A stretch of DNA of 64,000 nt from Candidatus Lustribacter sp. (GCA_965277805.1 OZ255842.1:4736001-4800000); one strand, 5' to 3'; positions 1,824 to 60,093 are shown, counted from the first letter of the stretch. Notes: a model not told the origin generated them from the sequence alone. Made by a program: numbers and translations.

Positions 1824-2990
1824 GTGGGATTCGGCAGAACATTCCGGCGTGCGCTCGCACTGACGGCCGAGATTGCAGCGATCGCGTCGCTCGGCTATAC
1901 GGCCGCCGCGGTCGCCGCATCCGCGCACTTCGGCCGGCGTGAACGCGAGGAAGCGCATGCGCAGCCGCCGGTGACGCTGCTGGTGCCGCTGCACGGCGAC
2001 GAACCGCTGCTCGAAGAGAACCTGCGCGCGTTCGCGGAGCAGAACTATCCCGATCTGCAGATCGTGCTCGGCGTGGCGCACGCGGACGATCCGGCGCTGC
2101 CGGTCGCGCGCCGCGTTGCCGCCGCGTTGCCGCATCACCGCATCGAGATCGACATCGGCGAGGTTGCCGGCGCGCGTAATCCCAAGCTCGCCAACGTCCT
2201 CTCGATGATGCGCCTAGTGCGCCACACCACGCTGATCCTGGCCGACAGCGATACGCGCGTCGATGCCGACTACGTGCGCGCCGTGACGGCCCCGCTGCAG
2301 AGGCCGGAGATCGGCGCGGTCACGTGTCTCTTCGCCGGGGTGCCCGACGAAACGTTTGCATCGCAGCTCGGGGCGATGTTCATGAACGAGCAGTTCATTC
2401 CGTCGGCGCTGGTCGACCGGCTGTTCGGCCCGCTGCGCCACTGCTTCGGCCCCACCAACGCGTTTCGCGCGGCGGTACTGCAGTCGATCGGCGGCTTCGA
2501 TGCGCTGGCGCCGCACCTGGCCGATGACTTCATGCTCGGGCACTTCGTCGCCGAGCGCGGCTTGCGCGTAGTGATCTCGAAGTACGTGATCCGCACGATG
2601 GTCTCCGACTCGACGTTGCCGGTCTTATGGGATCACGAACTGCGCTGGCATCGCACGATCCGCGGATTGCAGCCGCTCGGTTACGCCGGGATGTTCCTGA
2701 CGTTTCCGGTGCCGCTCGCGCTGCTTGCGTTTGCGCTCGCGCGGCGGCGCGTGCCGGCCGGCGTGCTGCTGGCAACGGCGGTACTCGGCCGAATCGCGTT
2801 GCAGCGTGTTGCGGCGCGCGCGCTCGGCGTGCCGCCCGCGCCGTTGTGGATGATTCCCGCGCGTGATGCGTTCGGGCTCGCGGTGTGGGCGCGCGGGCTC
2901 ACCGGCCACGACGTGCGCTGGCGCGGCGCCCCGCTGCAGATGGCCGCCGACGGCGACCTGCTCGAGGAGCGCAACGCTAGCGCACGCTAG
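1824..2990 (+). CDS. hpnI: GT2/GT21 glycosyltransferase, HpnI/ceramide glucosyltransferase-like
   Basis: NPKLANV, DSD, LADDFMLG and HELRW.RTIR motifs; N- and C-terminal TM segments; GTG 1824 chosen to avoid overlap with the divergent MFS. Confidence 0.75.
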   Translation: MGFGRTFRRALALTAEIAAIASLGYTAAAVAASAHFGRREREEAHAQPPVTLLVPLHGDEPLLEENLRAFAEQNYPDLQIVLGVAHADDPALPVARRVAAALPHHRIEIDIGEVAGARNPKLANVLSMMRLVRHTTLILADSDTRVDADYVRAVTAPLQRPEIGAVTCLFAGVPDETFASQLGAMFMNEQFIPSALVDRLFGPLRHCFGPTNAFRAAVLQSIGGFDALAPHLADDFMLGHFVAERGLRVVISKYVIRTMVSDSTLPVLWDHELRWHRTIRGLQPLGYAGMFLTFPVPLALLAFALARRRVPAGVLLATAVLGRIALQRVAARALGVPPAPLWMIPARDAFGLAVWARGLTGHDVRWRGAPLQMAADGDLLEERNASAR

Positions 2991-4711
2991 ATCGTCCCGA
3001 TCTTGTTCCCGGCCGCGTTGTTCTCGGCGAACCAGATGTGGTTATTGGGACCAAGCGTGATGCTGCACGGTCCGCTGTTGGCCGTCGGTAACGGGAACTC
3101 GGTGAAGACGCCGGCCGTCGTCATCCGCGCGACTTTGTTTGCGGAGTTGTTATTCTCCGTGAACCAGAGGTTGCCGTCGGCGCCGGTGACGATCGTCATC
3201 GGCTGGCTGTTCGCGGTTGGAATCGTGTATTCGGGGCCGAAGACACCGGCCGTCGTAATGTGGCCGACTTTGTTGGCCGCGCCGGATTCTTCCAAGAACC
3301 ACAGCGCACCGTCGGGCCCCACGCTGATGCCCGACGGATTGCTCGACGCCGTCGGGATGGTGTATTCGGTAAAGCTGCCGCTGGTCGTCATGCGCCCGAT
3401 TTGATTCGTTCCCGACTGGGTGAACCACAGCGCGCCGTCCGGAGCCGACACGATATATCCCGGAAACGTGTTCGCGGTCGGAATCGTGAATTCGGTCACG
3501 ACGCCGGCTGTGGTGATGCGAGCGATCTTGTTGCCGTCGTACTCGGTGAAATATAGATTCCCATCCGGATTCGACGTGATCTGGTAAGGAAACACGAACG
3601 GGCTAATGCCCGCTGAATACTCCGTGATCACGTGCGTCGTCGGATTGATCGTGCCGATCTTGTTCGCGAAGCTGTTTTCCTCGGTGAACCAGAGGTTGCC
3701 GTCGGAACCGAGTGCCATCGAGGTTGGTGCTGAGTTGACGGTCGGAATCGGGTACTCCGTGATCGTGCCGCCGATCGAGACGCGTCCGACGTTGTTACCG
3801 GTTTGCTCGACGAACCACAGCGCGTTGTCGGCCGGATCGCTCACGATGCCTTCCGCTTCGCTCGACGACGTCGGGATCGAGAATTCCGAGAACGTGAAAC
3901 TGCCCGACGGCGAAATCGGGACCACTGCATACGGCAACGTTGGGGCGTTCGGATTCGCGAACGTGATATGCACCGTGCTCGCTACCGACGAGGATCCGTC
4001 GTAGGTGAGCGTGACCGCTTGCGACGGCGAGGTCCAAAGTGCCGGGGTGATCGTGATGTGCGAATCGCTCGACGTGAGAGTGATTCCGGCTGCGAACGTC
4101 GCCGATGACGGGATCGTCGTACCGTCCGGATCGTCTGCGCCGATCGTTACCGTTGCCGTTCCGGGGGTGCCGATGATGAACGACGTTCCGGACGTGTAGA
4201 CGACCGAACCGGGGACGAGCGACGCAACGACCGGCGCCATCGTTGCGGATGCAGTGAACGTTTGGCCGCTGACGACGGTCGGCTGCGCGCTGCCTTGTGC
4301 GATCAAGTGTCCGGTCCCGTTGGGAGCATCGTAGAGAGCGAGTAGAATCGTGGGCGTGCCGACCGGCGCCGTGATCGGGATCGAGCACGTACGCACGCTG
4401 CCGAGTGTGATAGGTCCCGTCGTGCACAGCGACGATGTCGAACTGACGTCGAAATATGTGTCCGGCGTTGCCGTGCTGGTCAACACCCCGAGCGACGACG
4501 CATTGGCGGACACGAATTGTACGCGCCGCGCCGTCGTGCTGTTCGTCGCCGCGCCGGCGCTGCCGATCGTGATCGTCATGACGCCGCTTGCATGTGGTCC
4601 GGTCAGGCCGGCCGGTGCTGCGGGAGTCGCCGGGGACGAACCGCCGCCGCCGCCGCACGCGGCAAGCAGCAGAACCGTGACGACTGCGGCAATGCGAAGC
4701 GATCCGGACAC
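2987..4711 (-). CDS. Lipoprotein with Ig-like N-terminal domains and C-terminal Vgb-like beta-propeller
   Basis: Lipobox LAAC followed by GGGGGS; about 7 repeats of EF.IPT..S.P..I..GPDG.LWF.E...NK.G.I. Confidence 0.85.
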   Translation of the reverse strand: MSGSLRIAAVVTVLLLAACGGGGGSSPATPAAPAGLTGPHASGVMTITIGSAGAATNSTTARRVQFVSANASSLGVLTSTATPDTYFDVSSTSSLCTTGPITLGSVRTCSIPITAPVGTPTILLALYDAPNGTGHLIAQGSAQPTVVSGQTFTASATMAPVVASLVPGSVVYTSGTSFIIGTPGTATVTIGADDPDGTTIPSSATFAAGITLTSSDSHITITPALWTSPSQAVTLTYDGSSSVASTVHITFANPNAPTLPYAVVPISPSGSFTFSEFSIPTSSSEAEGIVSDPADNALWFVEQTGNNVGRVSIGGTITEYPIPTVNSAPTSMALGSDGNLWFTEENSFANKIGTINPTTHVITEYSAGISPFVFPYQITSNPDGNLYFTEYDGNKIARITTAGVVTEFTIPTANTFPGYIVSAPDGALWFTQSGTNQIGRMTTSGSFTEYTIPTASSNPSGISVGPDGALWFLEESGAANKVGHITTAGVFGPEYTIPTANSQPMTIVTGADGNLWFTENNNSANKVARMTTAGVFTEFPLPTANSGPCSITLGPNNHIWFAENNAAGNKIGTI

Positions 4712-4803
4712 AAAACACCTCGAGGTACAAGCAACCTAGGGGCCGGTCTCAGGAGTTTACCAGCAAGCTGGAAGGTTCGTCTAGAGCGCGAAAGCCCGAG
4801 CCG

Positions 4804-5742
4804 ATGAACAGACAAGCTGCCCTCGCGCTCGGAAGCGCTTTTCTCGCCTCCCCGTCGGTGCTGTCGGCGCAAACGGCCACGCAAATGGTACTGGGTGCCG
4901 TGCCCGAGGAGTCGGTGACGCCGGCCCTTTGGGCAGTGCAGAGCGGGATGTTCCGCAAGGCGGGGCTGGATGTTGAGGTGCAGTCGGCGAGCAGCGGAAC
5001 GGCCATCGCGGCCGGCGTCGCGGGAGGCTCCTATGCGGTCGGCAAGTCGTCGCTGGTCGCGATCATCACCGCGCACGCCAAAGGGCTGCCGTTCGTGTTC
5101 GTGGCCGGCGGCAGTCTCTACGATACGAAGTTTCCGTACTCGGTGCTGACGGTGAAAGCCGACTCGCCGCTCAAGACCGCCAAAGATCTCGACGGCAAGA
5201 CGCTCGCCGTGCCGGCCCTCAGCGACCTCACCACCTACGCCACCAAAGCGTGGGTGGACTCGCACGGCGGCGATTCCACCACGTTGAAGCTGCTCGAGTT
5301 TCCGTTCTCGCAGATCCCCGATGCGCTGGCCTCGGGCCGCGTCGACGCGGGCTTCGTCGCCGATCCGGTTCTGCAGCAAGCGCTCGACGCCAAAAAAGTG
5401 CGTATTTTCGCGCACGCCTTCGACGCCGTTGCGCCGCAGTTCATGGTCACCGGCTGGTTCGTCACGCAAGAGTACGCGTCGAAGAACCTCACGGAACTGC
5501 AGAAATTTAAGAACGTCATCTACGAAGCGGCGAAGTACATCGAGAGCCATCCCGCCGATACGGTCAACGTGCTGGCGAAGTTCAGCGGCGTCGATCCCGC
5601 GGTCATCGCGCGGACGCACCGCATCGGGTACGCGCCGCTCGAGCCGAAATACATTCAGCCGGTCATCGACATCTGCGCGAAGTACAAGGCGATCCCGGCG
5701 GCGTTCGACGCCAAAGAGATTATAGCGGCAGGGTTACACTAA
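4804..5742 (+). CDS. SsuA/THI5(NMT1)-family ABC substrate-binding protein
   Basis: Signal peptide; G.F.KAGLDV, DL.GKT.A and GRVDA motifs. Confidence 0.88.
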   Translation: MNRQAALALGSAFLASPSVLSAQTATQMVLGAVPEESVTPALWAVQSGMFRKAGLDVEVQSASSGTAIAAGVAGGSYAVGKSSLVAIITAHAKGLPFVFVAGGSLYDTKFPYSVLTVKADSPLKTAKDLDGKTLAVPALSDLTTYATKAWVDSHGGDSTTLKLLEFPFSQIPDALASGRVDAGFVADPVLQQALDAKKVRIFAHAFDAVAPQFMVTGWFVTQEYASKNLTELQKFKNVIYEAAKYIESHPADTVNVLAKFSGVDPAVIARTHRIGYAPLEPKYIQPVIDICAKYKAIPAAFDAKEIIAAGLH

Positions 5743-6010
5743 CCGGGTCGAGCCGTTTAGGATAGCGGCGCACGCGCCGGTAGGTGGCGATCGCGCGAGC
5801 CACGTCCTGGTCGGCGACGTCGAAGATCAGGTGTTCGGCGATCGCCGCCGCATACGCGTAACCGCGAATTGCCCGTTCGAGATCGGCGTCGCGCAGCCAC
5901 TCGCGGTGGCGGCTGCGGTCGCGCCGCGCCATCGCGGTGGCAAAGTCTCGCAGCCGCGTCGCGCCGATGCTTGCAGCCGGGAGCCGTTTTCTGAGCGTTT
6001 GCGTGCCCAT
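5720..6010 (-). CDS. Small hypothetical protein
   Basis: 96 aa ORF fills the gap between two SBP genes; AAGGA upstream of ATG; no recognised motif. Confidence 0.5.
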   Translation of the reverse strand: MGTQTLRKRLPAASIGATRLRDFATAMARRDRSRHREWLRDADLERAIRGYAYAAAIAEHLIFDVADQDVARAIATYRRVRRYPKRLDPVSVTLPL

Positions 6011-9293: not shown

Positions 9294-9968
9294 GTGCTCC
9301 AAGCGCTCTTCGGGAACAAGAACAAGGATAAGCGCCGGCATACGCGCCGAGAGAAGGCGTTCTCTGCCGACTGGACTTCCGCGCCCGAAGTTGCCCCGAC
9401 CCCGGTCATCGGACTCGACGTGAGCGCGAGCGGCGCCGGCATTCTCTCGCGCGAAGAGATCAAACAAGAAGAGTTCATTCTTCGGCTCAAGCTCGACGAA
9501 CGCATCATCCCGACCCGCGTGAAAGTTGCGCGGCGGTTACCGGGAACGTTGCAAGGCGCGAAGGCATTCCGCTACGGCGTCGAGTTCGTGAGCATCTCGG
9601 CCGACGATTGGGATGCGGTCGTGCGCTGGTCGAAGGGCGGCGAGGCCGCCGAAGCCAGCAACAAAGTGAAGTCGGATCTCGAGATGGTCAAGATGACCGC
9701 CGACGATGCCGACCGTCTCATGCCGGTCGCGTTGCAAACGAAGTTGCTCAACGGCCTGACCCGCCGCGGCCGCCTCGCGCCGCTCGTGCCGAACCAGCAG
9801 CCGCTCGTCGGGTATTTCTACGGCGGCACGGTCAAACGCAACGGGATGATGATGCACCGTCTGGCGATCGTCTCGCGCGTGGCCGACGTCAACAACGGGC
9901 CGCCGGCCGAGTTCCGCACCATGTTCTACTTCGATGACGCCGGCGCGCACATCGAAATGGGCGATTAA
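9294..9968 (+). CDS. PilZ domain protein with unknown C-terminal domain
   Basis: RRHTRR and DVSASG c-di-GMP motifs; YGVEF strand. Confidence 0.8.
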   Translation: MLQALFGNKNKDKRRHTRREKAFSADWTSAPEVAPTPVIGLDVSASGAGILSREEIKQEEFILRLKLDERIIPTRVKVARRLPGTLQGAKAFRYGVEFVSISADDWDAVVRWSKGGEAAEASNKVKSDLEMVKMTADDADRLMPVALQTKLLNGLTRRGRLAPLVPNQQPLVGYFYGGTVKRNGMMMHRLAIVSRVADVNNGPPAEFRTMFYFDDAGAHIEMGD

Positions 9969-9982
9969 CGCCCAAGCCGCCC

Positions 9983-10921
9983 TCAGTGGCTAGGTTTGTA
10001 GATCATTTGATCGGCGGGAAACGGCGTGAACTTGCTGTATTTCGCCGCGACGTTGATCACCGGTTGTAAGAACGCGGGATTCAACGTCTCGCCGTACCGC
10101 ACGCGCAACATACCGGCGGCGGCGTCCGGATCCATCTTCGCGTACTTCAAGAGAATTTCAGCGCTCTTCGCATGGTTTGCGTTCGCCCATACCGCCGCTT
10201 CGTGAATCGCCGCGACGAAACGGTTGAGCAGGTCGGCGTGATCTTTGGCCCACGCAGCGTTGGTGAAGTAAGCGCTGACGAGAAATTCTTTCGCGATCGC
10301 GTCGTACGGCGCGCCGATGACGCGTTCGGTCTTGCGAGCGACCGATAAGAACGGTTCGGCGATCGTAATCGCGTCGACGCGGCCGGCATCGAGCGCGGGC
10401 TGCATCTGCGGAAACGGCAGTTCGACGAATTTTACCGTGCTCAAGTCGCCGCCGTTGGCCTCGATCCACGCGCGCGGGCCGTAACCGGAGATCGTGCCGA
10501 GGCCCGAGCCTGCGACGATTTTTCCGTTCAGATCTTTCGCGCTGTGAATCGATGAGTTTGCGGAGACCATCAGCAGGTTTACCGGTGCCGTCGACTCGCT
10601 CATGCCGGCCGGTGCGACGACGACGAACGGCACGTTGCGTCCGACGCCCGATGCGATCGAGACCATGTCGGAGTAGCCGATGTCGATCGCATTGCCGGCG
10701 ACCGCCGTCGCCACCGCGCCGCCGTTGGCACCGGCCTGGATGTCGACGTCGATCCCGGCTTTGGCGAAGAAGCCCATGTCCTTGGCGTAGTACACTTCTG
10801 CGCCGGCGTCGATCGGCACGGTCATCACGTGCACGACCGGCGGCGTTTGCGCGCCGGCCGGCAGTGCGAGCGCGCACATCCATATCGCTGCGAGAACAAC
10901 GTTGCGCAGGGTCGATGACAT
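9983..10921 (-). CDS. SsuA/THI5-family ABC substrate-binding protein
   Basis: Signal peptide; GFFAKAGIDV, DLNGK, GRVDA. Confidence 0.88.
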   Translation of the reverse strand: MSSTLRNVVLAAIWMCALALPAGAQTPPVVHVMTVPIDAGAEVYYAKDMGFFAKAGIDVDIQAGANGGAVATAVAGNAIDIGYSDMVSIASGVGRNVPFVVVAPAGMSESTAPVNLLMVSANSSIHSAKDLNGKIVAGSGLGTISGYGPRAWIEANGGDLSTVKFVELPFPQMQPALDAGRVDAITIAEPFLSVARKTERVIGAPYDAIAKEFLVSAYFTNAAWAKDHADLLNRFVAAIHEAAVWANANHAKSAEILLKYAKMDPDAAAGMLRVRYGETLNPAFLQPVINVAAKYSKFTPFPADQMIYKPSH

Positions 10922-10940
10922 AGCTAGTTCCCCCGTTCGT

Positions 10941-11525
10941 TCAAGTGAGGTTGGACGTTGCGCCGTCCGGAAGTTGTTGCGCGAACACGGCGAGCGTCGT
11001 TGCGGTAGCGGCGTACGCGCCCATCAGCATCACGAGGTTGACCAGCGTCTCGGTTTCGAACTGTTCGGCTGCGGCGGCGTAGGTGGAGCGGCGCACGCGG
11101 TGTTTGCCCAGCGCTTCGCGGCCGAGTTTGATGATCGCCGCTTCTTTGGCGCCGATGCCGCGCACGCGCTTGCGTTTGCGCACGATCTCGATGATCTCGT
11201 CCTCGAGGCCTTCGCGGCGCGCGTTGATCTCGTGCTGGTACCACTCAAAGTGAGAATCCATCTCGCGAGCGACCACGAGGATCGCCAGCTCGCGCAGCCG
11301 CACGTCGAGGCCGGTCTCGAAACGCAGCATCTGATTGAGCTTGTGGTGCGCGGCATAGACGCGCGGGCTGTGCAACACGATCCCGGCGGGCCCGCGAAAA
11401 CCGGCCAGCGAGCGCGGATCGTTGGCGACGCTGTCGTAGAGCGCTTGGCCCTCGGCGTCGAGCGGCTCGCGCTCGATCAACGGCAAACGGTTCCCAGATT
11501 CAGGAAAAACGTCACCCGGTCGCAT
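10941..11525 (-). CDS. Carboxymuconolactone decarboxylase/AhpD-like protein
   Basis: LHSP and LRELAIL.VA......EW.QH motif; GGAG before ATG 11525. Confidence 0.85.
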   Translation of the reverse strand: MRPGDVFPESGNRLPLIEREPLDAEGQALYDSVANDPRSLAGFRGPAGIVLHSPRVYAAHHKLNQMLRFETGLDVRLRELAILVVAREMDSHFEWYQHEINARREGLEDEIIEIVRKRKRVRGIGAKEAAIIKLGREALGKHRVRRSTYAAAAEQFETETLVNLVMLMGAYAATATTLAVFAQQLPDGATSNLT

Positions 11526-11601
11526 CTCCGGCCCCTTCGGTCCGGGCCGCGACCGCCCTTTGCACCGAGGGGGGCTTCTGCGATGGGGAGAAACCGATGC
11601 G

Positions 11602-12129
11602 ATGACGCGACAACGCACGGGAGCGCTGCTCATTCCCGAGGAGCACCTGGAGAAGCACCGTCGCCGGTTTGCGCGCTTCAAGCCGCTCAACGCGCAGGTG
11701 CTCTTCGCGGTTCGAGCGCTGGCCCAACGGATCAACGACGATGCCACCGAACGTCTCGCCGCGCTCGGGCTCACGGCTCGCCAATACAACTACCTCTCGG
11801 TGATCTACGTCGAGGAAAGCGTCACGCCGAACGAGATCGGGACGCTCATTCATACCGCGAATCCGACCGTTACCTCGATGCTCAACGCGCTCGAACGCGA
11901 CGGGCTCATCGTGCGCGAAGCGCATCCCGAAGACGGGCGCAGTTCGGTCGTGACGCTCACGCCGCGCGGCAAGACGCTCTATGAAAAAGCGTTCCAGCTC
12001 CATCACGATCCGCTCGAGGAAACGATGGCCGCGCTGAGCCTAGACGAGCGCAAAAAGCTGGTCGACGTGCTCGTTCGCCTGGGCGATTCTTTCGCCGAGT
12101 CGGGTAAGCAGAAAAAGAAGGCCAATTGA
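11602..12129 (+). CDS. MarR-family transcriptional regulator
   Basis: GLT..QY..L, LE.DGLI.R..HPEDGR...V.LT..G; GGAG RBS. Confidence 0.92.
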   Translation: MTRQRTGALLIPEEHLEKHRRRFARFKPLNAQVLFAVRALAQRINDDATERLAALGLTARQYNYLSVIYVEESVTPNEIGTLIHTANPTVTSMLNALERDGLIVREAHPEDGRSSVVTLTPRGKTLYEKAFQLHHDPLEETMAALSLDERKKLVDVLVRLGDSFAESGKQKKKAN

Positions 12130-12170
12130 CTTTTAGGGTAGGGCACCCTAGAATGTTGTTAGAATACTAA
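12126..12170 (+). promoter_or_regulatory. Sigma70-type promoter with downstream inverted repeat (candidate operator)
   Basis: TTGACT(12126)-17 bp-TAGAAT(12149), then TTAG-AATA-CTAA (12159-12170), ahead of the catabolic operon. Confidence 0.75.
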
Positions 12171-12183
12171 GGACGAGGATTGC

Positions 12184-12561
12184 ATGCAAGACGTTAAGGT
12201 AATCGCGACGCGGTACACCGATCGCGAGAAGACCGATCCAAACGCGCGGATCATGAACCCGGCCGATTTCATCAAAGTGAATCCCGAGAAGCTGCAATCG
12301 GGACGGATGTACGTGGGCGATGAGTTTCGCGCGGTCGTACTGACCTTGACGCCGGGGCAGGCGCAGACGCTGCACATGCATCCCGAAACCTCGCACGCCT
12401 GGTTCATCATTTCCGGCAGCGGCGAAGTGACGATGGAAGACGGCCGTAAAGAGCGTGCGAGCGCCGGCCAGTTTTGCGTGCATCCGCGCAACAGCGTGCA
12501 CGGCATCACCAACGACACGAACGAAAACCTCACCTACATCGCCCTGTCGATCGGCGACTGA
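12184..12561 (+). CDS. Cupin domain protein
   Basis: PGQ.Q.LHMHP and P.N.VHG cupin motifs. Confidence 0.85.
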   Translation: MQDVKVIATRYTDREKTDPNARIMNPADFIKVNPEKLQSGRMYVGDEFRAVVLTLTPGQAQTLHMHPETSHAWFIISGSGEVTMEDGRKERASAGQFCVHPRNSVHGITNDTNENLTYIALSIGD

Positions 12562-12571
12562 GAGAAACACG

Positions 12572-13549
12572 ATGTTGTCAGCGAAAGATTTCCACGGCTT
12601 GTGGGCGATCATCCCGACGCCTTCGAAACCCGGCGCCGATCGCGCCGACGCGGTCGATACGGTGGATCTCGAAGAGACCGCGCGCGTCGTCGACAAGCTG
12701 ATCAAAGACGGCTCCGATGCGCTGATCGTGCTGGGCACGACCGGCGAGTGCGCGACGCTGACGCGCAGCGAATACGAAGCCTTCGTCGACACGGTGCTGA
12801 CGACGGTTAACAAGCGTATCCCGTGCTTCATCGGCACGACGGCGCTCGGCACCCACGAAGTCGTCTATCGCACGCGCTTCGCGCAAGACCGCGGCGCCGA
12901 CGGCATCCTGCTCGGCCTGCCGATGTGGCAGCCGCTCACGGTCGTGCAAGCCGTGGAGTACTATCGCAGCGTCAGCGAGCTGTTCCCGAAACTCGCGATT
13001 CAAGTCTACGGCAACCCGCGCGCCTTCCGTTTTGCGTTTCCACCCGAGTTCTGGGCTGCGGTGGTCAAGGCCGTGCCGAACATCACCTCGGCGAAATACT
13101 CGCGTCCGAAAGCGCTGCTCGAATCACAAGCCGCCTCGAACGGCAAAGTGCACTTTCTGCCCAATGACGGCGGCGTGATGCAGTTCGTCGATCTGGCGCC
13201 GGAAACGACGACGGCCTGCTGGTCGACCGCGGCCTCGATGGGTCCGGAGCCGGCCCTGGCGCAGATCCGCGCGATCCAATCGGGCGACCTCGAGCGCGCG
13301 CGCGCGATCGCCAAAGACCTGAAGTGGACGCGCGAACCGATCGCGCCGATCGTCGCCGACGCCGACCTCTTCGCAAGCTACAACATCCAGCTCGAAAAGA
13401 CGCGCATCGGCCTCGCCGGTTACTGCAAAGCCGGTCCGTTGCGGCCGCCCTACAACGTGTACCCTGAAGAATATCACGCGCTCTTCCAGGAAAACGCAAC
13501 GCGCTGGCGCGAGCTGTGCGAGCGTTACTCGAAGGTAGCCGCTCCGTGA
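12572..13549 (+). CDS. DHDPS-family hydratase-aldolase, NahE/PhdJ-like
   Basis: G.W.I.PTP, TVDLEETAR.V, GTTGECATLT, PMW, YGNP.AF.F.FP..FW, SAKY closely follow NahE as recalled. Confidence 0.85.
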   Translation: MLSAKDFHGLWAIIPTPSKPGADRADAVDTVDLEETARVVDKLIKDGSDALIVLGTTGECATLTRSEYEAFVDTVLTTVNKRIPCFIGTTALGTHEVVYRTRFAQDRGADGILLGLPMWQPLTVVQAVEYYRSVSELFPKLAIQVYGNPRAFRFAFPPEFWAAVVKAVPNITSAKYSRPKALLESQAASNGKVHFLPNDGGVMQFVDLAPETTTACWSTAASMGPEPALAQIRAIQSGDLERARAIAKDLKWTREPIAPIVADADLFASYNIQLEKTRIGLAGYCKAGPLRPPYNVYPEEYHALFQENATRWRELCERYSKVAAP

Positions 13550-14457
13550 CGTCCACTCCGGCCGTGACGGCGGTTCGCAGCGTCGAACTCGGCGTCCGCG
13601 ACCTCGATGCATCATCGGCCTTCTATCAAGACACGTGGCTGCTCGACGAAGTCGCGCGCACACCGACGGCCGTCTATCTGCGCGCGGCCGGATCCGAGCA
13701 CCACGTGCTCGCCATTCACGGCGATCAGCCGTTCGGCGTCGTGCGCATCAATCTCGCGGCACCCGATCGGGCAGCGGTCGACGCACTGCACGACGCAGTG
13801 CTCTCAGCGGCGGTGCCGATCGTCCATGCGCCGCGCGATCTCGATGAACCCGCCGGCGGTTACGCGTTCGCCTTTACCGACTACGAAGGACGGGAGTTCC
13901 GCATCGTCGCCGGCTTGCCCGTACACCGTGAAGTCGACCACTCGAACGACCGGCCGGAGAAGGTGAGCCATATCGTCTTGAACGCCGAGGCGGAGAGCGG
14001 CAGCGCGAAGCTTTTCTGCGAGAAGCTCGGGTTCCGGTTGCGCGATCAAACGGGCCGGGCGAATTTCATCGGCTGCAACGCCGATCATCACAGCCTGGCT
14101 TTCGGCCGCGTCGGCGGCAGCGCGATGAACCACGTTGCGTTCGACATCCACGATCTCGACGGCGAGATGCGAGCGGCCGGCCGCATGAAGCGCGGCGGGC
14201 ATCCGATCGAGTGGGGCGTCGGCCGTCATGGCCCCGGCCACAACGTTTTCGCCTATTTTATCGACCCCAACGGTTACGCCATCGAGTACACGACCGAGAT
14301 GGATCAAGTCGACGATGCAAAATACGTCCCGGGTACACCCGAGACGTGGAAGCGCGCGCCGCACTCGGACGCGTGGGGCATCGCCGACCCGCCGACCCAA
14401 CGTTTTCGCGACGCGATCACCGGAAAGCTAGGTGCTTATGCTGAGTCAACAAGATAA
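13546..14457 (+). CDS. VOC-family extradiol ring-cleavage dioxygenase
   Basis: Two VOC modules; SHIVL, DHHSLA, GRHGPG, YFIDPNGYAIEY; GTGA overlap. Confidence 0.85.
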   Translation: MTSTPAVTAVRSVELGVRDLDASSAFYQDTWLLDEVARTPTAVYLRAAGSEHHVLAIHGDQPFGVVRINLAAPDRAAVDALHDAVLSAAVPIVHAPRDLDEPAGGYAFAFTDYEGREFRIVAGLPVHREVDHSNDRPEKVSHIVLNAEAESGSAKLFCEKLGFRLRDQTGRANFIGCNADHHSLAFGRVGGSAMNHVAFDIHDLDGEMRAAGRMKRGGHPIEWGVGRHGPGHNVFAYFIDPNGYAIEYTTEMDQVDDAKYVPGTPETWKRAPHSDAWGIADPPTQRFRDAITGKLGAYAESTR

Positions 14458-54766: not shown

Positions 54767-55984
54767 ATGATGTACCAAATGTATCAAGCGCAGGCCGATG
54801 CAGCAGAGCAAGTGCGTGTGTGGGCGCGCGCGACGAGCGCATTGCTTCATAATCCGTTCGCACAAGCGTTTGCGCCGTTTGGTATGGGCTACGTCACCGC
54901 CGGCTACGAAATGCTCGCCCGCGCCGGGTTTACGCACGAACGCACGCCCTTCGGTATCGACTCGGTCAAGATCGGGACCGACGACGTTCCGGTCACCGAA
55001 GAAATCGCCGCCGCCACGCCGTTTGCGACGTTGCTCCACTTCAAGAAGGCCTCCGCGGCTCATCTGCCGCGCGTGCTGCTCGTCGCGCCGATGTCGGGCC
55101 ACTTTGCAACCCTGCTGCGCGCGACCGTCAAGACGATGCTGCCCGAGCACGACGTGTATCTCACCGACTGGCACAACGCGCGCGACGTGAGCCTCGACGA
55201 CGGCCCGTTCGGGGTCGACGACTACGTCGCGCACGTGATCCAATTTCTCGAAACGATCGGCAGCGGCGCGCACGTCGTGGCCGTCTGCCAGCCGTGCGTT
55301 CCGGTCCTCGCCGCGGTTGCGGTCATGGCCGAGGCCGGAAACGAGGCGCAGCCGCGCACGATGACGCTGATGGCAGGCCCGGTCGATGCGCGCGTGAGCC
55401 CGACGCGGGTGAACGAACTCGCAATCAGCCATCCGATGGAGTGGTTCGAGCAGAATCTCATCGCGACGGTGCCGGCGAAATTTCGCGGCGCGAACCGCCG
55501 CGTTTACCCCGGCTTCATCCAGCTGCTCGCGTTCATCAGCATGAATCCCGAGCGCCACGTTGAGGCGCATTGGGATCTCTACAACGATTTTGCCACCGGC
55601 GAAGACGAAAAAGCGAAGACGATCGCAACGTTTTACGACGAGTACTTCTCAGTCGCCGATCTGCCGGCGGAATTCTATCTCGAAACGGTCAGGACCATCT
55701 TCCAAGAGTACGCGCTGGCGCGCGGCACGCTGACGTATCGTGGCCGCCTCGTCAACCCCGGGGCGATCGACCGCACCGCGCTGCTCACCGTCGAAGGCGA
55801 ACGCGACGACGTGTGCGGGATCGGTCAGACGCTCGCCGCACAGGATCTCTGCACCGGCATCCGGCCCTATCGCAAGCGTCATCATCTGCAGCCGGGCGTC
55901 GGACACTACGGCGTGTTCAGCGGCCGGCGCTGGTCGCAGAGCATCTACCCGATGCTGCGCAACCTCATCCTATCCATGGACTAG
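54767..55984 (+). CDS. phaZ: Intracellular polyhydroxyalkanoate depolymerase
   Basis: VAPMSGHFATLLR, VAVCQP, TVEGERDD, GVGHYGVFSG. Confidence 0.95.
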   Translation: MMYQMYQAQADAAEQVRVWARATSALLHNPFAQAFAPFGMGYVTAGYEMLARAGFTHERTPFGIDSVKIGTDDVPVTEEIAAATPFATLLHFKKASAAHLPRVLLVAPMSGHFATLLRATVKTMLPEHDVYLTDWHNARDVSLDDGPFGVDDYVAHVIQFLETIGSGAHVVAVCQPCVPVLAAVAVMAEAGNEAQPRTMTLMAGPVDARVSPTRVNELAISHPMEWFEQNLIATVPAKFRGANRRVYPGFIQLLAFISMNPERHVEAHWDLYNDFATGEDEKAKTIATFYDEYFSVADLPAEFYLETVRTIFQEYALARGTLTYRGRLVNPGAIDRTALLTVEGERDDVCGIGQTLAAQDLCTGIRPYRKRHHLQPGVGHYGVFSGRRWSQSIYPMLRNLILSMD

Positions 55985-55988
55985 CAGT

Positions 55989-57032
55989 CTACTGCAGCGA
56001 GACTTGGTTCGCGACGATCAGGAACGATGAGTCGGCCTTCGAGAGCGTTCCGCGAATCGTGATGTTTTTGCCGAGAAATGCGCCGAAGTCGATCTGCACC
56101 GTAGGTGCTTCCAGAACGAGCGCCGTTTCGCGGCCGGCGGCGTTCGCGAGGAAGTAGCCGTTCGGCCCCAGCTTCAACGTGCCGGAGAGTGAGGTGACGA
56201 ACTGCGGCTGCTCGAGCACGTTGGGGGTGATCGAGGCGACCTTGCGGTTCTGATTGGGGCCGCTGAAGTTCAGCAACGCGCTGATCTGCGCGATCCCTTT
56301 GACTTGCGGCGTCCAGATCGTGGTCACGCGCGTCGTCTGACCGGAGGTTGTCGGCGGTACGATGATGCGTGCCAGCTGCCCGCCGTTCGCGGTGATCGAG
56401 AGCGGCACGTTTTGTTCGGCGAACGTGCCGCTGTTCTGCACGGTCGCGACGATGACGGTGGCCGCGCCGACATAGGCCGGCGTGGTCAGCACGAGCGAGG
56501 TGATGCCCATATCGTGCACCGGCGTCGAGGAACCGCCGCCGCGCGCGAGATCGAGCGAAAAGCGCCCGATCGATGAGAAGATCGTCGACGCACCGGTCCC
56601 GATGATCGCGCGCACGCGCCAGTAATACACGCCGCCCGAAAGCGGGAGATTCGGCGGCTGCTGGCTGGTGAATCCGGAGCCCGGCAAGTTTTGGTTCTGG
56701 AACGTGAAGATCGTCGTCGGCGTATTGAGGTCGACGAGGATGTGGCTGCCGACGTCGGGTTGATCGGAGATCTGCAGTTCGTAGGTGACGGCGAGCGCAC
56801 CGGGCGCGACTTGCGGTTGGCGCCCGCGCGAGGTCAGCACGAAGTTGTAGACGTTGCCGGGGTTCACCGGCGTCCATTGGAACAGAATCGGAATGCCGAC
56901 GTTGAGCATCGGCGAGATCAGCGTCGGCGCCGGCACCTGCGGGATCGTCTGCGCGTGGGCCGTTGCGCCCGACGCTAAGGCGAGCGCAGCAGTGAGCGCG
57001 AGGCGTCGCGTGGTTCGAACGAGTGCGTGCAT
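55989..57032 (-). CDS. Secreted protein with FN3-like, CARDB-like and OB-like domains
   Basis: Signal peptide; YELQIS...YYWRVRA; V.N.G...; TGATG coupling. Confidence 0.7.
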   Translation of the reverse strand: MHALVRTTRRLALTAALALASGATAHAQTIPQVPAPTLISPMLNVGIPILFQWTPVNPGNVYNFVLTSRGRQPQVAPGALAVTYELQISDQPDVGSHILVDLNTPTTIFTFQNQNLPGSGFTSQQPPNLPLSGGVYYWRVRAIIGTGASTIFSSIGRFSLDLARGGGSSTPVHDMGITSLVLTTPAYVGAATVIVATVQNSGTFAEQNVPLSITANGGQLARIIVPPTTSGQTTRVTTIWTPQVKGIAQISALLNFSGPNQNRKVASITPNVLEQPQFVTSLSGTLKLGPNGYFLANAAGRETALVLEAPTVQIDFGAFLGKNITIRGTLSKADSSFLIVANQVSLQ

Positions 57033-58930
57033 CAGAATTGCCGATTGACGCTCAAGGCGCCGACGGACGTATTGATCATGCCGATGTTCTCCGTTACCGT
57101 AGCAGAAACCGAGTAGGGGCTATGCGGCGGCTTCACGGTCAAACCGTAGTTGTACGTGGTGGTCGGCGGGCTGACCACGCCGAAGGCAGGGAGCGTGAGC
57201 GCGTGATTGAGCTGCGTCGAGAGCGTAAAACTGCCGCGCGTCCAGGAGATCGATGCGGTCGCCGAATTGCTGACCGACGATTGGGTGTCGGAGCTGGCAT
57301 CGTTTTGGCTCAGATTGTATCCGCCCGAAATCGTGATGCCGGCGAACGGGGTGCGTGAGATCGTGATGCCGTCGGTCATGACGTGCAAGAGATCGCCGGT
57401 ATCGTCGCGCGTCTCCGTATCGGTGAGCGTGTATTGGATCGCGTACGGTCCGCGCCGCGTCGTATAGGCGAACGTCGTGCCGTCGTTGCCGCTGAAAGGC
57501 GCGACCGGCGTTCCCGTCTGATGCTGGATTCCGTTCACTCCCTGTAACGACAGCGTGTCCCCGTTCTTGAGCGGATAGGTGATGCCGATGTTCTCCGTCG
57601 AGTAGTGGGTTGTCTGTACAGCGGTCGAACCGGGAAGGTCGTTGCGATAGGCATTGAAGCCGAGTGTGACCTGCAGCACGCCCAACGGGAAGTTGACCGA
57701 GGCGCTCTCGTTCTCTTGATCGGGCGTGATCGACGGCGCGAGGCTGTTCGAAAACGCCGGCGTGGCGCGCACGTAGCTGAAGGCAAAGTGCGCCTTGCGG
57801 ATCGCGAAGCCGAACGACGTGTCGAACACCTGCCCGAACTGATCGGATCCGGTGATGTCGTCGAGATAGTACGACATGCCGTAGTGCAAGCCGTAGGTGA
57901 TCGTCGAGTTCCTCGCGGTCACGTCGTCGCCGAATCCGAAGAACGTGCCGTCGCGCATGAAATACGGTCCGCTGGCTTGCACGGGCCCATAGACGGTCTC
58001 GTAGGCACCCGTGACGGTGACCGACGTTCCGTGCAGCGGAAAGCCGTACTGCGCGGCCGATACTTCGAAGGGGTTCGTGGTGTCGTGATTGCCCGAGATG
58101 TAGGCGCCTTGCAAGTAGTTCGTCTGCGAGTATTGCTGCTTGAAGCCGAAGCCCGAACCGGTCGGGCCGGCGAGCACGTCGCGGTCGTAGGCGGGCGCGA
58201 ACGTGCCGATTTGCACGAGCGTGGTCGGTGTTTGGTAGCTGAAGATCGGCTTCGTTGCGCCCGGCGTGTTGGCGAGGCCGAGCGACGTCGTCACGCTCTG
58301 GTTGTTGGCGAATTTCCCGGTCATGTTCAAGGTGCCGCTCTGCGTTTGCTGCGCGGCGAAGCCCGCGTTGAGCGCGAGCGAACCGTTATAGCTTTGCGTC
58401 GGCACGTGCGGCGCGGGCGGGGCCTGCGGCTGCGCCGGGGCCGGGCTTTCGGCGACACCGGGCGCCGGAACTTGACCCGGCGGCGGCGATCCGGGCGGCA
58501 CGATCGTCGCGGCCCCTGCCGAACCGCCGACCACGATGCCGACCGGCGGTGACGTTTCGGATTCCTTACCGTGCGCAAGCTGCGCGCGCACGACGAGCGG
58601 CCCGGCATAACCCTGCGGCAGCGCGAGATCGGCGAAGACCATCGTGGTCTGCTGCGGCGTTGCGGCCTCGGTTGCCGTGAGCGGTGAACCGGTCACGACG
58701 ACGTTGCCGTTGGGATCGGTCGCCGTCAGCGTGAGCGAATACGAACTCGGGGCCCACACGAGGTTGTCGTCGGGCGAAACCGCGATTTGAAACGTCACCG
58801 TCCCGCCGACGTCGGGGGCGAGGTTTTTCGCGATGATTTCTTCGATCGCGTTGTCGGCCAGCGCGGCACGCGGCGCCGCTAACGCGAGGCCGACCAGCGC
58901 GGCAAGAGAAACGTGCCAGACGCGATTCAC
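57032..58930 (-). CDS. Putative outer-membrane beta-barrel with N-terminal Ig-like domain
   Basis: Signal peptide, Pro-rich linker, long alternating amphipathic strands, C-terminal Phe; GTG 58930. Confidence 0.65.
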   Translation of the reverse strand: MNRVWHVSLAALVGLALAAPRAALADNAIEEIIAKNLAPDVGGTVTFQIAVSPDDNLVWAPSSYSLTLTATDPNGNVVVTGSPLTATEAATPQQTTMVFADLALPQGYAGPLVVRAQLAHGKESETSPPVGIVVGGSAGAATIVPPGSPPPGQVPAPGVAESPAPAQPQAPPAPHVPTQSYNGSLALNAGFAAQQTQSGTLNMTGKFANNQSVTTSLGLANTPGATKPIFSYQTPTTLVQIGTFAPAYDRDVLAGPTGSGFGFKQQYSQTNYLQGAYISGNHDTTNPFEVSAAQYGFPLHGTSVTVTGAYETVYGPVQASGPYFMRDGTFFGFGDDVTARNSTITYGLHYGMSYYLDDITGSDQFGQVFDTSFGFAIRKAHFAFSYVRATPAFSNSLAPSITPDQENESASVNFPLGVLQVTLGFNAYRNDLPGSTAVQTTHYSTENIGITYPLKNGDTLSLQGVNGIQHQTGTPVAPFSGNDGTTFAYTTRRGPYAIQYTLTDTETRDDTGDLLHVMTDGITISRTPFAGITISGGYNLSQNDASSDTQSSVSNSATASISWTRGSFTLSTQLNHALTLPAFGVVSPPTTTYNYGLTVKPPHSPYSVSATVTENIGMINTSVGALSVNRQF

Positions 58931-60093
58931 GGGCTTTGCCGCGTTTGTGCGTTGACGTTGAACTGGTTGTTGTTGACGTCGACGAAGATGCTCTTGCTCA
59001 CCGATCCGAACGTGCCGGTGAGCGTACACGCGTGGGCGACGTTGCTGCTGGGCGCGACGTTCCCGGTCACGTTCACCGTCGCCGGCGTTCCGGCCGGCAC
59101 GGACGTTTGCGAGAGCGAGATCGCGGCACCGCTCACGCACGTGTCGGTGAGCGCGACCGGTCCGGCTCCGCCGGTGAGCGTCACGGTGACCGGCGCGCTC
59201 GGACCGCCGACGGAAACGCTGACGTCGGCGGGCGTAATCGACAGCACCGGCGTGGCCGAGCCGGTGAACGCCGGGAAGGGCGCGGTGACCGTCTTATTGC
59301 CGATCTGCGCGGCCACGCTCGGATTGGCGGCGGGCGTGCCGTCGTACGTCACGGTGACGGGGGTACTGGGGCTGGTCACGGTGCCGGGTGAAAACGTGAA
59401 CCCGGGCGTCTGAGACACGAGAACGAGCGGCGTGCTGAACGGCACGGCGCCCGGGATCGGATTGCCGTCGGCATCGAGCGCGGTGAAGATCAGCGATGTG
59501 GTTCCCGGAACACCATTGGCGAGCGGCGCTCCTACGGCGAGTTGCACGCCGGCGGCCACGGGCTGCAGCGTTGCGTTCACATTAGCGACGCCGTCGACGG
59601 CCGGCGGTACCGGAACGGTGACGGTCGAGAGCAGATTGCCTTGCGAGTTGGGCTGATCGAAGAACTCGATGACGAAGTTCGTCGCGCTCGATTGCGCGAC
59701 GACCGAGATGTCGCACTCGGTCAAGCCGTTGACGACCGTGCAGTCCGGCGGCAATGGCGAGAGGTTCAACTGCGCGCCGATCGCGGTCGCCGTGCCGTAT
59801 TGGACATCGACCTCGAGCGATTGCGATGACGGTGAAATGTACGCCGCGTGCCGCACATTCGAACTCGTCGTGCGCGACGGGACGGCGAACGAAAAGCGCG
59901 CGGTCAATGCGGCGCTGCTCGTGGCGGGGGTGGCTCCCGGGCCGCTTGAGCCTCCGCCACCGCAGCCGGCGCACAACGCCAAACTCGAGACGAATATGAG
60001 CGCGCGGATGCCTCTCAAACGACGAAATCCCCTACCATGTAAAGTGTCCGACAGCTTTCTCAGCGTGCCGATGCCTGCCTGCGGCCTTACCAT
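58927..60093 (-). CDS. Ig-fold-rich lipoprotein
   Basis: Lipobox CAGC-GGGGSS; Thr/Val/Pro-rich beta domains; start may be later (e.g. TTG 60018). Confidence 0.75.
   Translation of the reverse strand: MVRPQAGIGTLRKLSDTLHGRGFRRLRGIRALIFVSSLALCAGCGGGGSSGPGATPATSSAALTARFSFAVPSRTTSSNVRHAAYISPSSQSLEVDVQYGTATAIGAQLNLSPLPPDCTVVNGLTECDISVVAQSSATNFVIEFFDQPNSQGNLLSTVTVPVPPAVDGVANVNATLQPVAAGVQLAVGAPLANGVPGTTSLIFTALDADGNPIPGAVPFSTPLVLVSQTPGFTFSPGTVTSPSTPVTVTYDGTPAANPSVAAQIGNKTVTAPFPAFTGSATPVLSITPADVSVSVGGPSAPVTVTLTGGAGPVALTDTCVSGAAISLSQTSVPAGTPATVNVTGNVAPSSNVAHACTLTGTFGSVSKSIFVDVNNNQFNVNAQTRQSP

Follow-up and report, generated by a model that had tools for sequence, protein, structure and literature searches.

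What might three overlapping genes build at the cell envelope when their exported products, apart from a single domain, belong to no named family? The question is raised by genes A, B and C, which lie in a 64,000-nucleotide stretch (GCA_965277805.1 OZ255842.1:4736001-4800000, hereafter the window) from Candidatus Lustribacter sp., an uncultured soil or bog bacterium whose genome is a single-contig, 5.53 Mb Eremiobacterota metagenome-assembled genome (MAG). Our analysis shows that the three genes are a real, conserved outer-membrane module of a kind so far undescribed. An earlier note on the same DNA had reported three exported proteins on the minus strand coupled by short overlaps, and this could be confirmed at the level of individual bases: the stop codon of A and the start of B share the sequence GTGA (context ccGTGAat), and the stop codon of B and the ATG start of C share TGATG (context ttcTGATGcac). 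The same note considered the module undescribed, an assessment that stands, given that A and B have neither a named family nor a solved relative and that C matches only CARDB; a shallow, listing-level literature search likewise found no description of an A-B-C module.

The predicted barrel of protein B

The central component is B, for which an AlphaFold2 model was built on a 22-sequence alignment (mean predicted local distance difference test score (pLDDT) 73.7, predicted template modelling score (pTM) 0.54). DSSP assigns 26 strands over residues 180–631 of this model, and the connections between them alternate between 4–15 residues (mean 7.8) on one face and 2–6 residues (mean 3.5) on the other. 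In the model this alternation is the one typical of barrels with longer loops outside and short turns in the periplasm, and it would place both ends of the barrel in the periplasm. The longest inter-strand loop has 15 amino acids (aa): no plug is inserted inside the barrel, and none of the loops has the length needed to close off the lumen. The protein begins with a signal peptide (ending ...AALA/DNA) and terminates in NRQF, the final residue of which, F632, is nearly invariant across the family. A signal peptide, a predicted barrel, a C-terminal aromatic residue and a β-barrel assembly machinery (BAM) in the host are therefore all present, as expected if B is an outer-membrane barrel. The earlier description of B as a protein of about 630 aa with an N-terminal immunoglobulin (Ig)-like domain, a proline linker, a barrel-like region and a final phenylalanine agrees with both the model and the sequence.

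The host provides a suitable setting for such a protein. Its genome encodes Omp85/BamA (94.1 bits) and LpxC (2.3e-86), and a passage of PMC9758169 describes the outer membrane of a cultured member of the Eremiobacterota as covered with lipopolysaccharide (LPS). These features point to a diderm host, in which an outer-membrane barrel is plausible.

By sequence, B stands apart from annotated proteins. It has no Pfam match at E ≤ 1 and no NCBIfam or PDB sequence relative; a profile of its 38-member family found no relative either, and none of the 38 members matches any Pfam family. Searches among 5.8 billion proteins recovered 22 clusters of homologues, all of them unnamed, and the ESM Atlas returned unnamed clusters only.

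Fold searches with the B model returned large outer-membrane barrels exclusively, with Z-scores of 16–21 against solved structures. The best match is the 26-stranded MtrB (6r2q_B; Z 21.1, root-mean-square deviation (rmsd) 4.5, 426 residues aligned), followed by PiuA (Z 20.4), a SusC-like chain (Z 19.4), FimD (Z 18.8, rmsd 4.0, 373 aligned) and PapC (Z 17.9). FimD is also the top Foldseek match (1e-7), in a search whose TM-scores were 0.2–0.4 overall and 0.31–0.41 for the usher rows, and which listed TonB transporters with lipoprotein lids (XusAB, BtuBG) as well as SlpA chains. The fold comparison proposed in the earlier note thus yields a barrel of about 26 strands that resembles ushers in barrel shape only, without a Slam or Fap family match. 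A soluble protein or a known TonB or porin fold, which that note had named as the outcome that would speak against its reading, was not what emerged: the model is a barrel, lacks a TonB-type plug and has no Pfam match, porins included.

We also considered whether B or its partners could be assigned directly to a characterized family, and set aside each candidate. An usher is contradicted by the missing PF00577 match, the ~26 strands without an inserted plug, and the lack of PapD or fimbrial matches in A and C; a TonB-dependent transporter by the missing PF07715 and TonB_dep_Rec matches, the Ig-like N-terminus and, again, the strand count. There is no LptD family match in B, which is moreover not a core gene, and the shared count of 26 strands reflects size only. 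For the MtrB/PioB porin-cytochrome systems we found neither an MtrB_PioB match nor a CxxCH motif in A, B or C, and the likeness in fold is confined to the barrel. Autotransporters, TpsB and Slam were rejected because B has no POTRA, DUF560 or other Pfam match and about 26 strands. Finally, the GfcBCD/YjbFGH module was rejected because none of the three proteins has a YjbH/GfcD, GfcC or YjbF Pfam match; according to a passage of PMC11494523, GfcD is a multi-barrel protein.

Gene order across lineages and a natural fusion of C-like and B-like parts

B is a single-copy gene in the host genome and is present in 9 of 401 genomes of the phylum, and in 5 of 41 close relatives; its closest copies come from Eremiobacterota/Vulcanimicrobiota MAGs, and one homologue of C carries the label Candidatus Lustribacter at source. 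All three genes have homologues (23–97% identity) in a sample of 23 loci, which group into 14 lineages when B is clustered at 95% identity. In 13 of 13 lineages that are informative on this point (the remaining one stops at a contig edge), the gene next downstream of B, on the same strand, is C. Seven loci, namely the window and L028-L033, were checked for overlap, and in each the start of C overlaps the end of B, as judged from start sites assigned in this analysis. An A-like lipoprotein gene adjoins B-C in 12 of the 14 lineages, in varying arrangements: it is co-directional and upstream in four, divergent and upstream in seven, downstream of C in one and absent from two. No neighbour other than A, B and C is conserved across the loci. 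Since B-C is found in every informative lineage and A is variable, the invariant unit is B-C, with A as a frequent third member. The synteny survey suggested in the earlier note therefore did reveal co-conservation (23 loci, 14 lineages), the lack of which it had named as counting against its reading, although its three-gene operon holds only in part: B-C recurs in 13 of 13 informative lineages and 12 of 14 lineages have an A-like gene next to it, but the A-B-C order of the window is restricted to 4 of 14.

The closest relative (G003) provides a separate observation. Its A orthologue contains an in-frame stop (L006 4847-6001) and its C orthologue is spread over two frames (L006 7899-8940), which could be due to sequencing error or to decay of accessory genes; its B is 97% identical to that of the window despite the broken A and C orthologues.

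That proteins of the C and B types work together is supported independently by a natural fusion in a distant family of the same phylum (G044). There, a single uninterrupted frame of 1593 aa (L056 4365-9143, plus strand) contains, in order, a PEGA domain, C-like FN3 and CARDB domains, repeated units with a Pro/Thr-rich linker (identified by eye) and a B-like Ig domain and barrel. Residues 100-294 align with the C profile (hhalign probability 97.3, E 1.8e-11; CARDB 1.9e-8) and residues 992-1415 with the B profile (probability 98.3, E 1.7e-14). This arrangement also indicates that C shares a compartment with the N-terminus of B. The fusion is followed, at 9343-13698 on the same strand, by a protein of at least 1452 aa that runs to the contig end and has a signal peptide and Ig-/FN3-like repeats, the latter seen by eye.

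At a second locus of G044 (L057), a 741-aa C-like open reading frame (ORF; probability 98.7, E 4.1e-16) lies directly upstream of a B-like gene, which is followed by a lipoprotein with a GGGG linker and a TIG domain; at a third locus, a B-like gene is likewise followed by a GGGG-linker lipoprotein. These lipoproteins are unrelated to A, to which they show no resemblance by BLASTP (E 0.034). The B-like gene of the second locus (4161-5944, minus strand) is split over two overlapping frames of 261 and 426 aa, the result of either a frameshift or an assembly error. The set of 5.8 billion proteins yielded no fused form of B of greater length, which is weak evidence.

When 1.84 billion representatives were searched with a profile, 70 matched at E ≤ 0.001, many of them proteins of ~600-680 aa that match the Ig domain of B. 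Thirty-two such proteins (alignment A4) proved homologous to full-length B (hhalign probability 99.9, E 5.9e-35 over 552 columns) at 16% identity. Their linker between Ig domain and barrel is short, the long Pro-rich linker being an insertion in B, and they have almost no Pfam matches besides Porin_4 in 2 of 32 and a weak SlpA_C in 2 of 32 (3e-5). The ESM Atlas clusters nearest to B are unnamed and commonest in Elusimicrobiota and Acidobacteriota. These uncharacterized Ig + barrel proteins are the true family context of B. Within the Eremiobacterota, the phylum covered by our gene-neighbourhood data, the wider profile has matches in 44 of 401 genomes, a count that includes an unpublished genome (G245) and barrel-only matches in larger proteins. 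Six further loci from several genomes of the phylum (L044, L046-L049 and L053) contain frames of 769-887 aa, five of them cut off by the edge of the retrieved stretch (809-1233 aa when whole), with a C-terminal barrel that matches the Ig + barrel profile with E-values between 1e-11 and 1e-13; N-terminal PKD/Ig-like repeats can be made out by eye in L044, L046, L048 and L049. The six frames seem to represent a related, larger class of outer-membrane proteins.

Partner proteins and the surroundings of the module

C has a signal peptide (ending ...AHA/QT) and an all-beta model (mean pLDDT 82.4) with three domains. The first is FN3-like, with invariant columns at F51, W53, Y84-E-L-Q87 and Y136-Y-W-R-V-R141, and its structural matches include 6i60_B (Z 10.1) and 3a0o_A (Z 9.7). 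The second is a CARDB domain (PF07705; 31.7 bits against a cut-off of 22.7, E 1.9e-7) that superimposes on 3idu_A (Z 13.8, rmsd 1.8, 101 aligned) and is matched by all 28 members of the C family. The third gives a DUF5818 match of E 0.019 in the window protein and of E ≤ 0.01 in 5 of the 28 members. Model, Pfam and signal peptide thus agree with the earlier assignment of C as a secreted FN3/CARDB/OB-like protein. No catalytic fold was found in C, its only family match being CARDB, and a Pfam search of A and C found no catalytic or known sugar-binding family. The gene is single-copy and has 39 clusters of homologues; in the ESM Atlas it leads to CARDB/FN3 clusters with scores below 0.85. In one orthologue (G124, L032 6782-7846, minus strand) a Pro/Thr-rich stretch comes after what may be a lipobox (..MLAAC), and C may be lipid-anchored in this lineage, where no A-like gene adjoins.

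The signal peptide of A ends in a lipobox, assigned by reading the sequence (...SLALCAG/C44), which is followed by a GGGGSS linker. The cysteine and the glycine run after it are kept in all four aligned A orthologues (alignment A5) and in the paralogues, and a signal peptide combined with a lipobox and an invariant cysteine marks A as a predicted lipoprotein. The rest of the protein consists of a conserved N-terminal module (approximately residues 60-230) and two probable beta domains, all-beta in appearance as judged by sequence, and ends in ...KSIFVDVNNNQFNVNAQTRQSP, a strand that is conserved among the closer orthologues only and looks like an ordinary last strand. There is no Pfam, NCBIfam or PDB family above threshold for A, all Pfam matches being sub-threshold. 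A belongs to a lineage-expanded lipoprotein family characterized by a Cys-GGGG linker, a conserved N-terminal module with two cysteines, and Ig-like domains. With A as the query its own genome yields 8 matches, including A itself; the A5 profile yields 12 there and up to 15 in relatives, and places the family in 25 of 41 related genomes, a count that takes in an unpublished genome (G036). Seven paralogue frames measure 567-809 aa, and five of the seven combine, by eye, this N-terminal module with a propeller-type repeat after it; a paralogue within the window (2990-4735, minus strand) matches Vgb_lyase at 3.4e-84. Several family matches (G000:C1:3978748-3979707 and 4618332-4618613, and others in G025, G026 and G028) contain a single in-frame TAG.

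Table 1. Features of the A-B-C locus, in window coordinates unless another sequence is named.
Feature	Position	Strand	Basis or remark
Gene A, lipoprotein, 388 aa	58927..60093	minus	ORF reading
Predicted lipidated Cys44 codon of A	59962..59964	minus	Cys + Gly run conserved
Gene B, predicted outer-membrane protein, 632 aa	57032..58930	minus	ORF reading, GTG start at 58930
B N-terminal Ig-like beta sandwich, residues 29-134	58529..58846	minus	AlphaFold2 model; common to the wider ~600-680-aa proteins
B Pro-rich disordered linker (33% Pro), residues 136-177	58400..58525	minus	Composition; pLDDT 22-29 in blocks covering 141-170
B beta barrel, ~26 strands, C-terminal Phe, residues 180-632	57035..58393	minus	DSSP on model
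Gene C, exported three-domain protein, 347 aa	55989..57032	minus	ORF reading
C FN3-like beta sandwich, residues 29-163	56544..56948	minus	Model; the family's most conserved motifs
C CARDB domain, residues 171-274	56211..56522	minus	Pfam + model; preceded by invariant His173
C small all-beta (OB-like) domain, residues 277-346	55995..56204	minus	Model; weakly DUF5818-like
A paralogues in own genome	G000:C1 3442539, 5270300, 1071926, 2113235, 3978748, 4618332 and others		Family matches

The flanking genes of the window are unrelated to the module and encode a polyhydroxybutyrate (PHB) depolymerase, an alpha/beta hydrolase, a desaturase and a 2-oxoglutarate (2OG) oxygenase. The PHB depolymerase gene (PHB_depo_C, 2.4e-90; 54767-55984, plus strand) converges on C, with 4 bases between the two stop codons. 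A promoter/terminator scan found no terminator-like site between these two genes and was uninformative overall, with no promoter-like site at all and, on the opposite strand, 3 terminator-like sites where 3.5 were expected.

A possible filled barrel and its alternatives

How, then, might the three proteins fit together? The reading that we favor, to which we assign a probability of roughly 40%, is a complex in which the barrel of B would act as a sheath around a lumen filled by β-sandwich domains, with C and usually A as partners. B and C would form an obligate outer-membrane complex that an A-type lipoprotein usually joins, a design that would resemble the combination of barrel sheath, protein insert and lipoprotein seen in MtrCAB and LptDE, assembled from unrelated parts. 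A wide barrel of ~26 strands without long loops presumably cannot stay open, so that its lumen would have to be filled or capped. The filler would probably be a β-sandwich domain, either the Ig domain of B itself, tethered by a 42-residue Pro-rich segment in B and by a short one in the wider family, or a domain of C. C would sit on the same side of the membrane as the N-terminus of B, most simply at the periplasmic mouth, and A, lipid-anchored in the outer membrane, would be the third subunit. Such a complex would hold or gate a β-sandwich assembly at or across the outer membrane and would not be a pore for free diffusion.

The existence of a complex is supported by the overlapping B and C genes, by the presence of C after B in 13 of 13 lineages, by the natural fusion, by the second G044 locus with its C-like ORF upstream of a B-like gene, and by the A-like gene in 12 of 14, along with the GGGG-linker lipoproteins that come after B-like genes in G044. 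The placement of the Ig domain is supported by the homology of full-length B to the wider family, in which a short linker separates Ig domain and barrel. As to the filler, the aligned range in the fold comparisons starts at residues 31-34 of B, opposite the cork of TonB transporters, in 2 of 50 and 1 of 50 rows, which offers a weak hint in favor of an Ig domain in the lumen. Several observations weigh against the proposal. The contacts of B with C and with A are putative; the position of the Ig domain and the state of the lumen were deduced rather than read from model coordinates, and the pTM of 0.54 leaves the arrangement of the domains uncertain. MtrB scores only ~1–3 Z units above TonB transporters and ushers, and its likeness to B is one of barrel size, not of kinship. 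In the natural fusion the C-like module is ~700 residues away from the barrel, which makes its FN3-CARDB part unlikely to be the plug itself. The CARDB, FN3 and PEGA domains, the Pro/Thr-rich linkers and the giant Ig-repeat neighbour would fit a location on the cell surface equally well. In addition, A is missing from two of the 14 lineages and changes orientation among the others, and may therefore be dispensable.

These surface-type features lead to the foremost of the alternatives, which we nevertheless regard as unlikely: display or secretion of the type V kind, with the barrel carrying β-sandwich passengers to the cell surface. The array of the fused protein would be a passenger in cis, C of the window and perhaps A would be partners in trans, and the Ig domain of B would be a periplasmic receptor. 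The order of the fused protein (passenger-like array, Pro/Thr-rich linker, Ig domain, barrel) suits this scheme, as do its CARDB, PEGA and FN3 domains, which are typical of surface proteins, and the signal-peptide protein of at least 1452 aa with Ig-/FN3-like repeats (by eye) encoded next to it; the scheme also comes near to what the earlier note had inferred. Nevertheless, B has no autotransporter, Omp85/TpsB, POTRA or Slam family match (Pfam; 0 of 38 members) and ~26 strands rather than 12 or 16, a barrel of this width would stay open around a single linker, and most A-family lipoproteins sit in genomes without B. Indeed, a family found in 25 of 41 genomes can hardly have as its general exporter a protein found in 5 of 41. 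We hold it improbable that B is instead a large-pore uptake channel, for example for bulky glycans, with C and A as binding proteins in a TonB-independent analogue of SusC/D/E/F. Here the resemblance of the FN3-like and CARDB domains of C to accessory domains of glycoside hydrolases (6i60, 3a0o, 3wnk, GH2/GH3 rows), the Vgb-lyase-like propellers of the A paralogues, and the presence of XusAB and BtuBG among the fold matches are set against a barrel without plug or TonB box, partners without catalytic or known sugar-binding families, and a module with no conserved glycoside hydrolase, ABC transporter or regulator beside it, its neighbours in the window being unrelated metabolic genes.

An envelope tether, in which the Ig domain of B on its Pro-rich hinge would join with C to tie the outer membrane to the cell wall in the manner of OmpA, OmpM or SlpA, appears decidedly improbable. 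A Pro-rich hinge beside a barrel is reminiscent of the OmpA hinge, SlpA_C barrels are weakly matched in 2 of 32 distant family members (3e-5), and related barrels in the phylum have long N-terminal Ig/PKD arrays; but a core tether should be commoner than B (only 9 of 401 phylum genomes, 5 of 41 close relatives), Pfam detects no SLH, OmpA_C or LysM domain, and there is no SlpA_C match in the host genome. The earlier note had looked toward a module that exports or anchors a surface filament or adhesin, a role that was not borne out in the sense that genes for pilin-like or chaperone-like proteins or for a fibre subunit are missing. What endures of its overall reading is the undescribed, co-conserved outer-membrane module. 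A platform for fibre or pilus assembly of the chaperone-usher, curli or Fap-like type is highly unlikely in our estimation, even with FimD and PapC among the fold matches and with A and C apparently all-beta: there is no Usher, PapD, fimbrial, CsgG or Fap family match, no plug within the barrel (longest loop 15 aa), TM-scores reach only 0.31-0.41, and no multi-copy subunit gene was found, the 1:1 translational coupling pointing to a complex and not to a polymer. We find a divergent LptD/LptE translocon for lipopolysaccharide barely credible. The strand count (26) and the kinds of component are equal, and the Pfam LptD barrel family finds nothing in the host genome; yet only 9 of 401 genomes have B although the phylum bears LPS, the host genome has LptD_N-type proteins at other loci, the N-terminal domain of B is not LptD_N, and LptD reaches Foldseek TM-scores of 0.19-0.29 and is not among the top 50 VIA rows.

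To our knowledge, very wide outer-membrane barrels are few. Those that have been characterized are each distinctive, serving in LPS insertion, pilus assembly, electron transfer or type 9 secretion. The B family adds a further wide barrel family without a Pfam, NCBIfam or PDB relative, one that has an obligate CARDB partner (confirmed by the natural fusion) and a recurrent lipoprotein, and that is tied to an unannotated superfamily in several poorly studied phyla. Knowing what fills the barrel would reveal a new envelope machine and provide an annotation for 22 clusters of B, 39 clusters of C and 70 profile matches; if B were merely a plugged porin with accessory proteins, the gain would be modest. 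Taking the filled barrel a step further, we can imagine, as a long shot, B-C(-A) as a haem-free counterpart of the Mtr-type trans-outer-membrane complexes, in which an Ig rod running through the 26-strand sheath would link a surface lipoprotein to the periplasm, and which would stand for an entirely unannotated, widespread class of 'Ig-plugged' giant barrels in Eremiobacterota and probably also in Elusimicrobiota and Acidobacteriota.

Comparison with known systems places these possibilities in context. SusCD, BtuBG and XusAB share with the module an N-terminal globular domain followed by a barrel, a co-encoded lipoprotein and many matches at Z 16-20, but TonB-dependent transporters have a Plug domain, a TonB box and 22 strands, whereas B has none of these and ~26 strands. 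The ushers FimD and PapC, with near-best Z-scores, also have a large barrel closed by a β-sandwich plug; theirs, however, has 24 strands with the plug inside the barrel sequence, in contrast to the ~26 strands and N-terminal sandwich of B, and pilin genes have no equivalent here. In LptD/LptE, too, the barrel has 26 strands and follows an N-terminal beta domain, and a lipoprotein plugs its lumen, although the CARDB partner of B (periplasmic or secreted) is without counterpart in the Lpt system. MtrCAB of Shewanella (PDB 6r2q) differs in that it has no sequence relation to the module, lacks an N-terminal Ig domain such as that of B and has another gene order; moreover, without a CxxCH motif in A, B or C, and with no cysteine at all in B and C, the module cannot be an electron conduit. 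What MtrCAB and A-B-C have in common is a co-encoded set of lipoprotein, 26-strand barrel sheath and periplasmic partner, and with it the idea of a lumen filled by protein.

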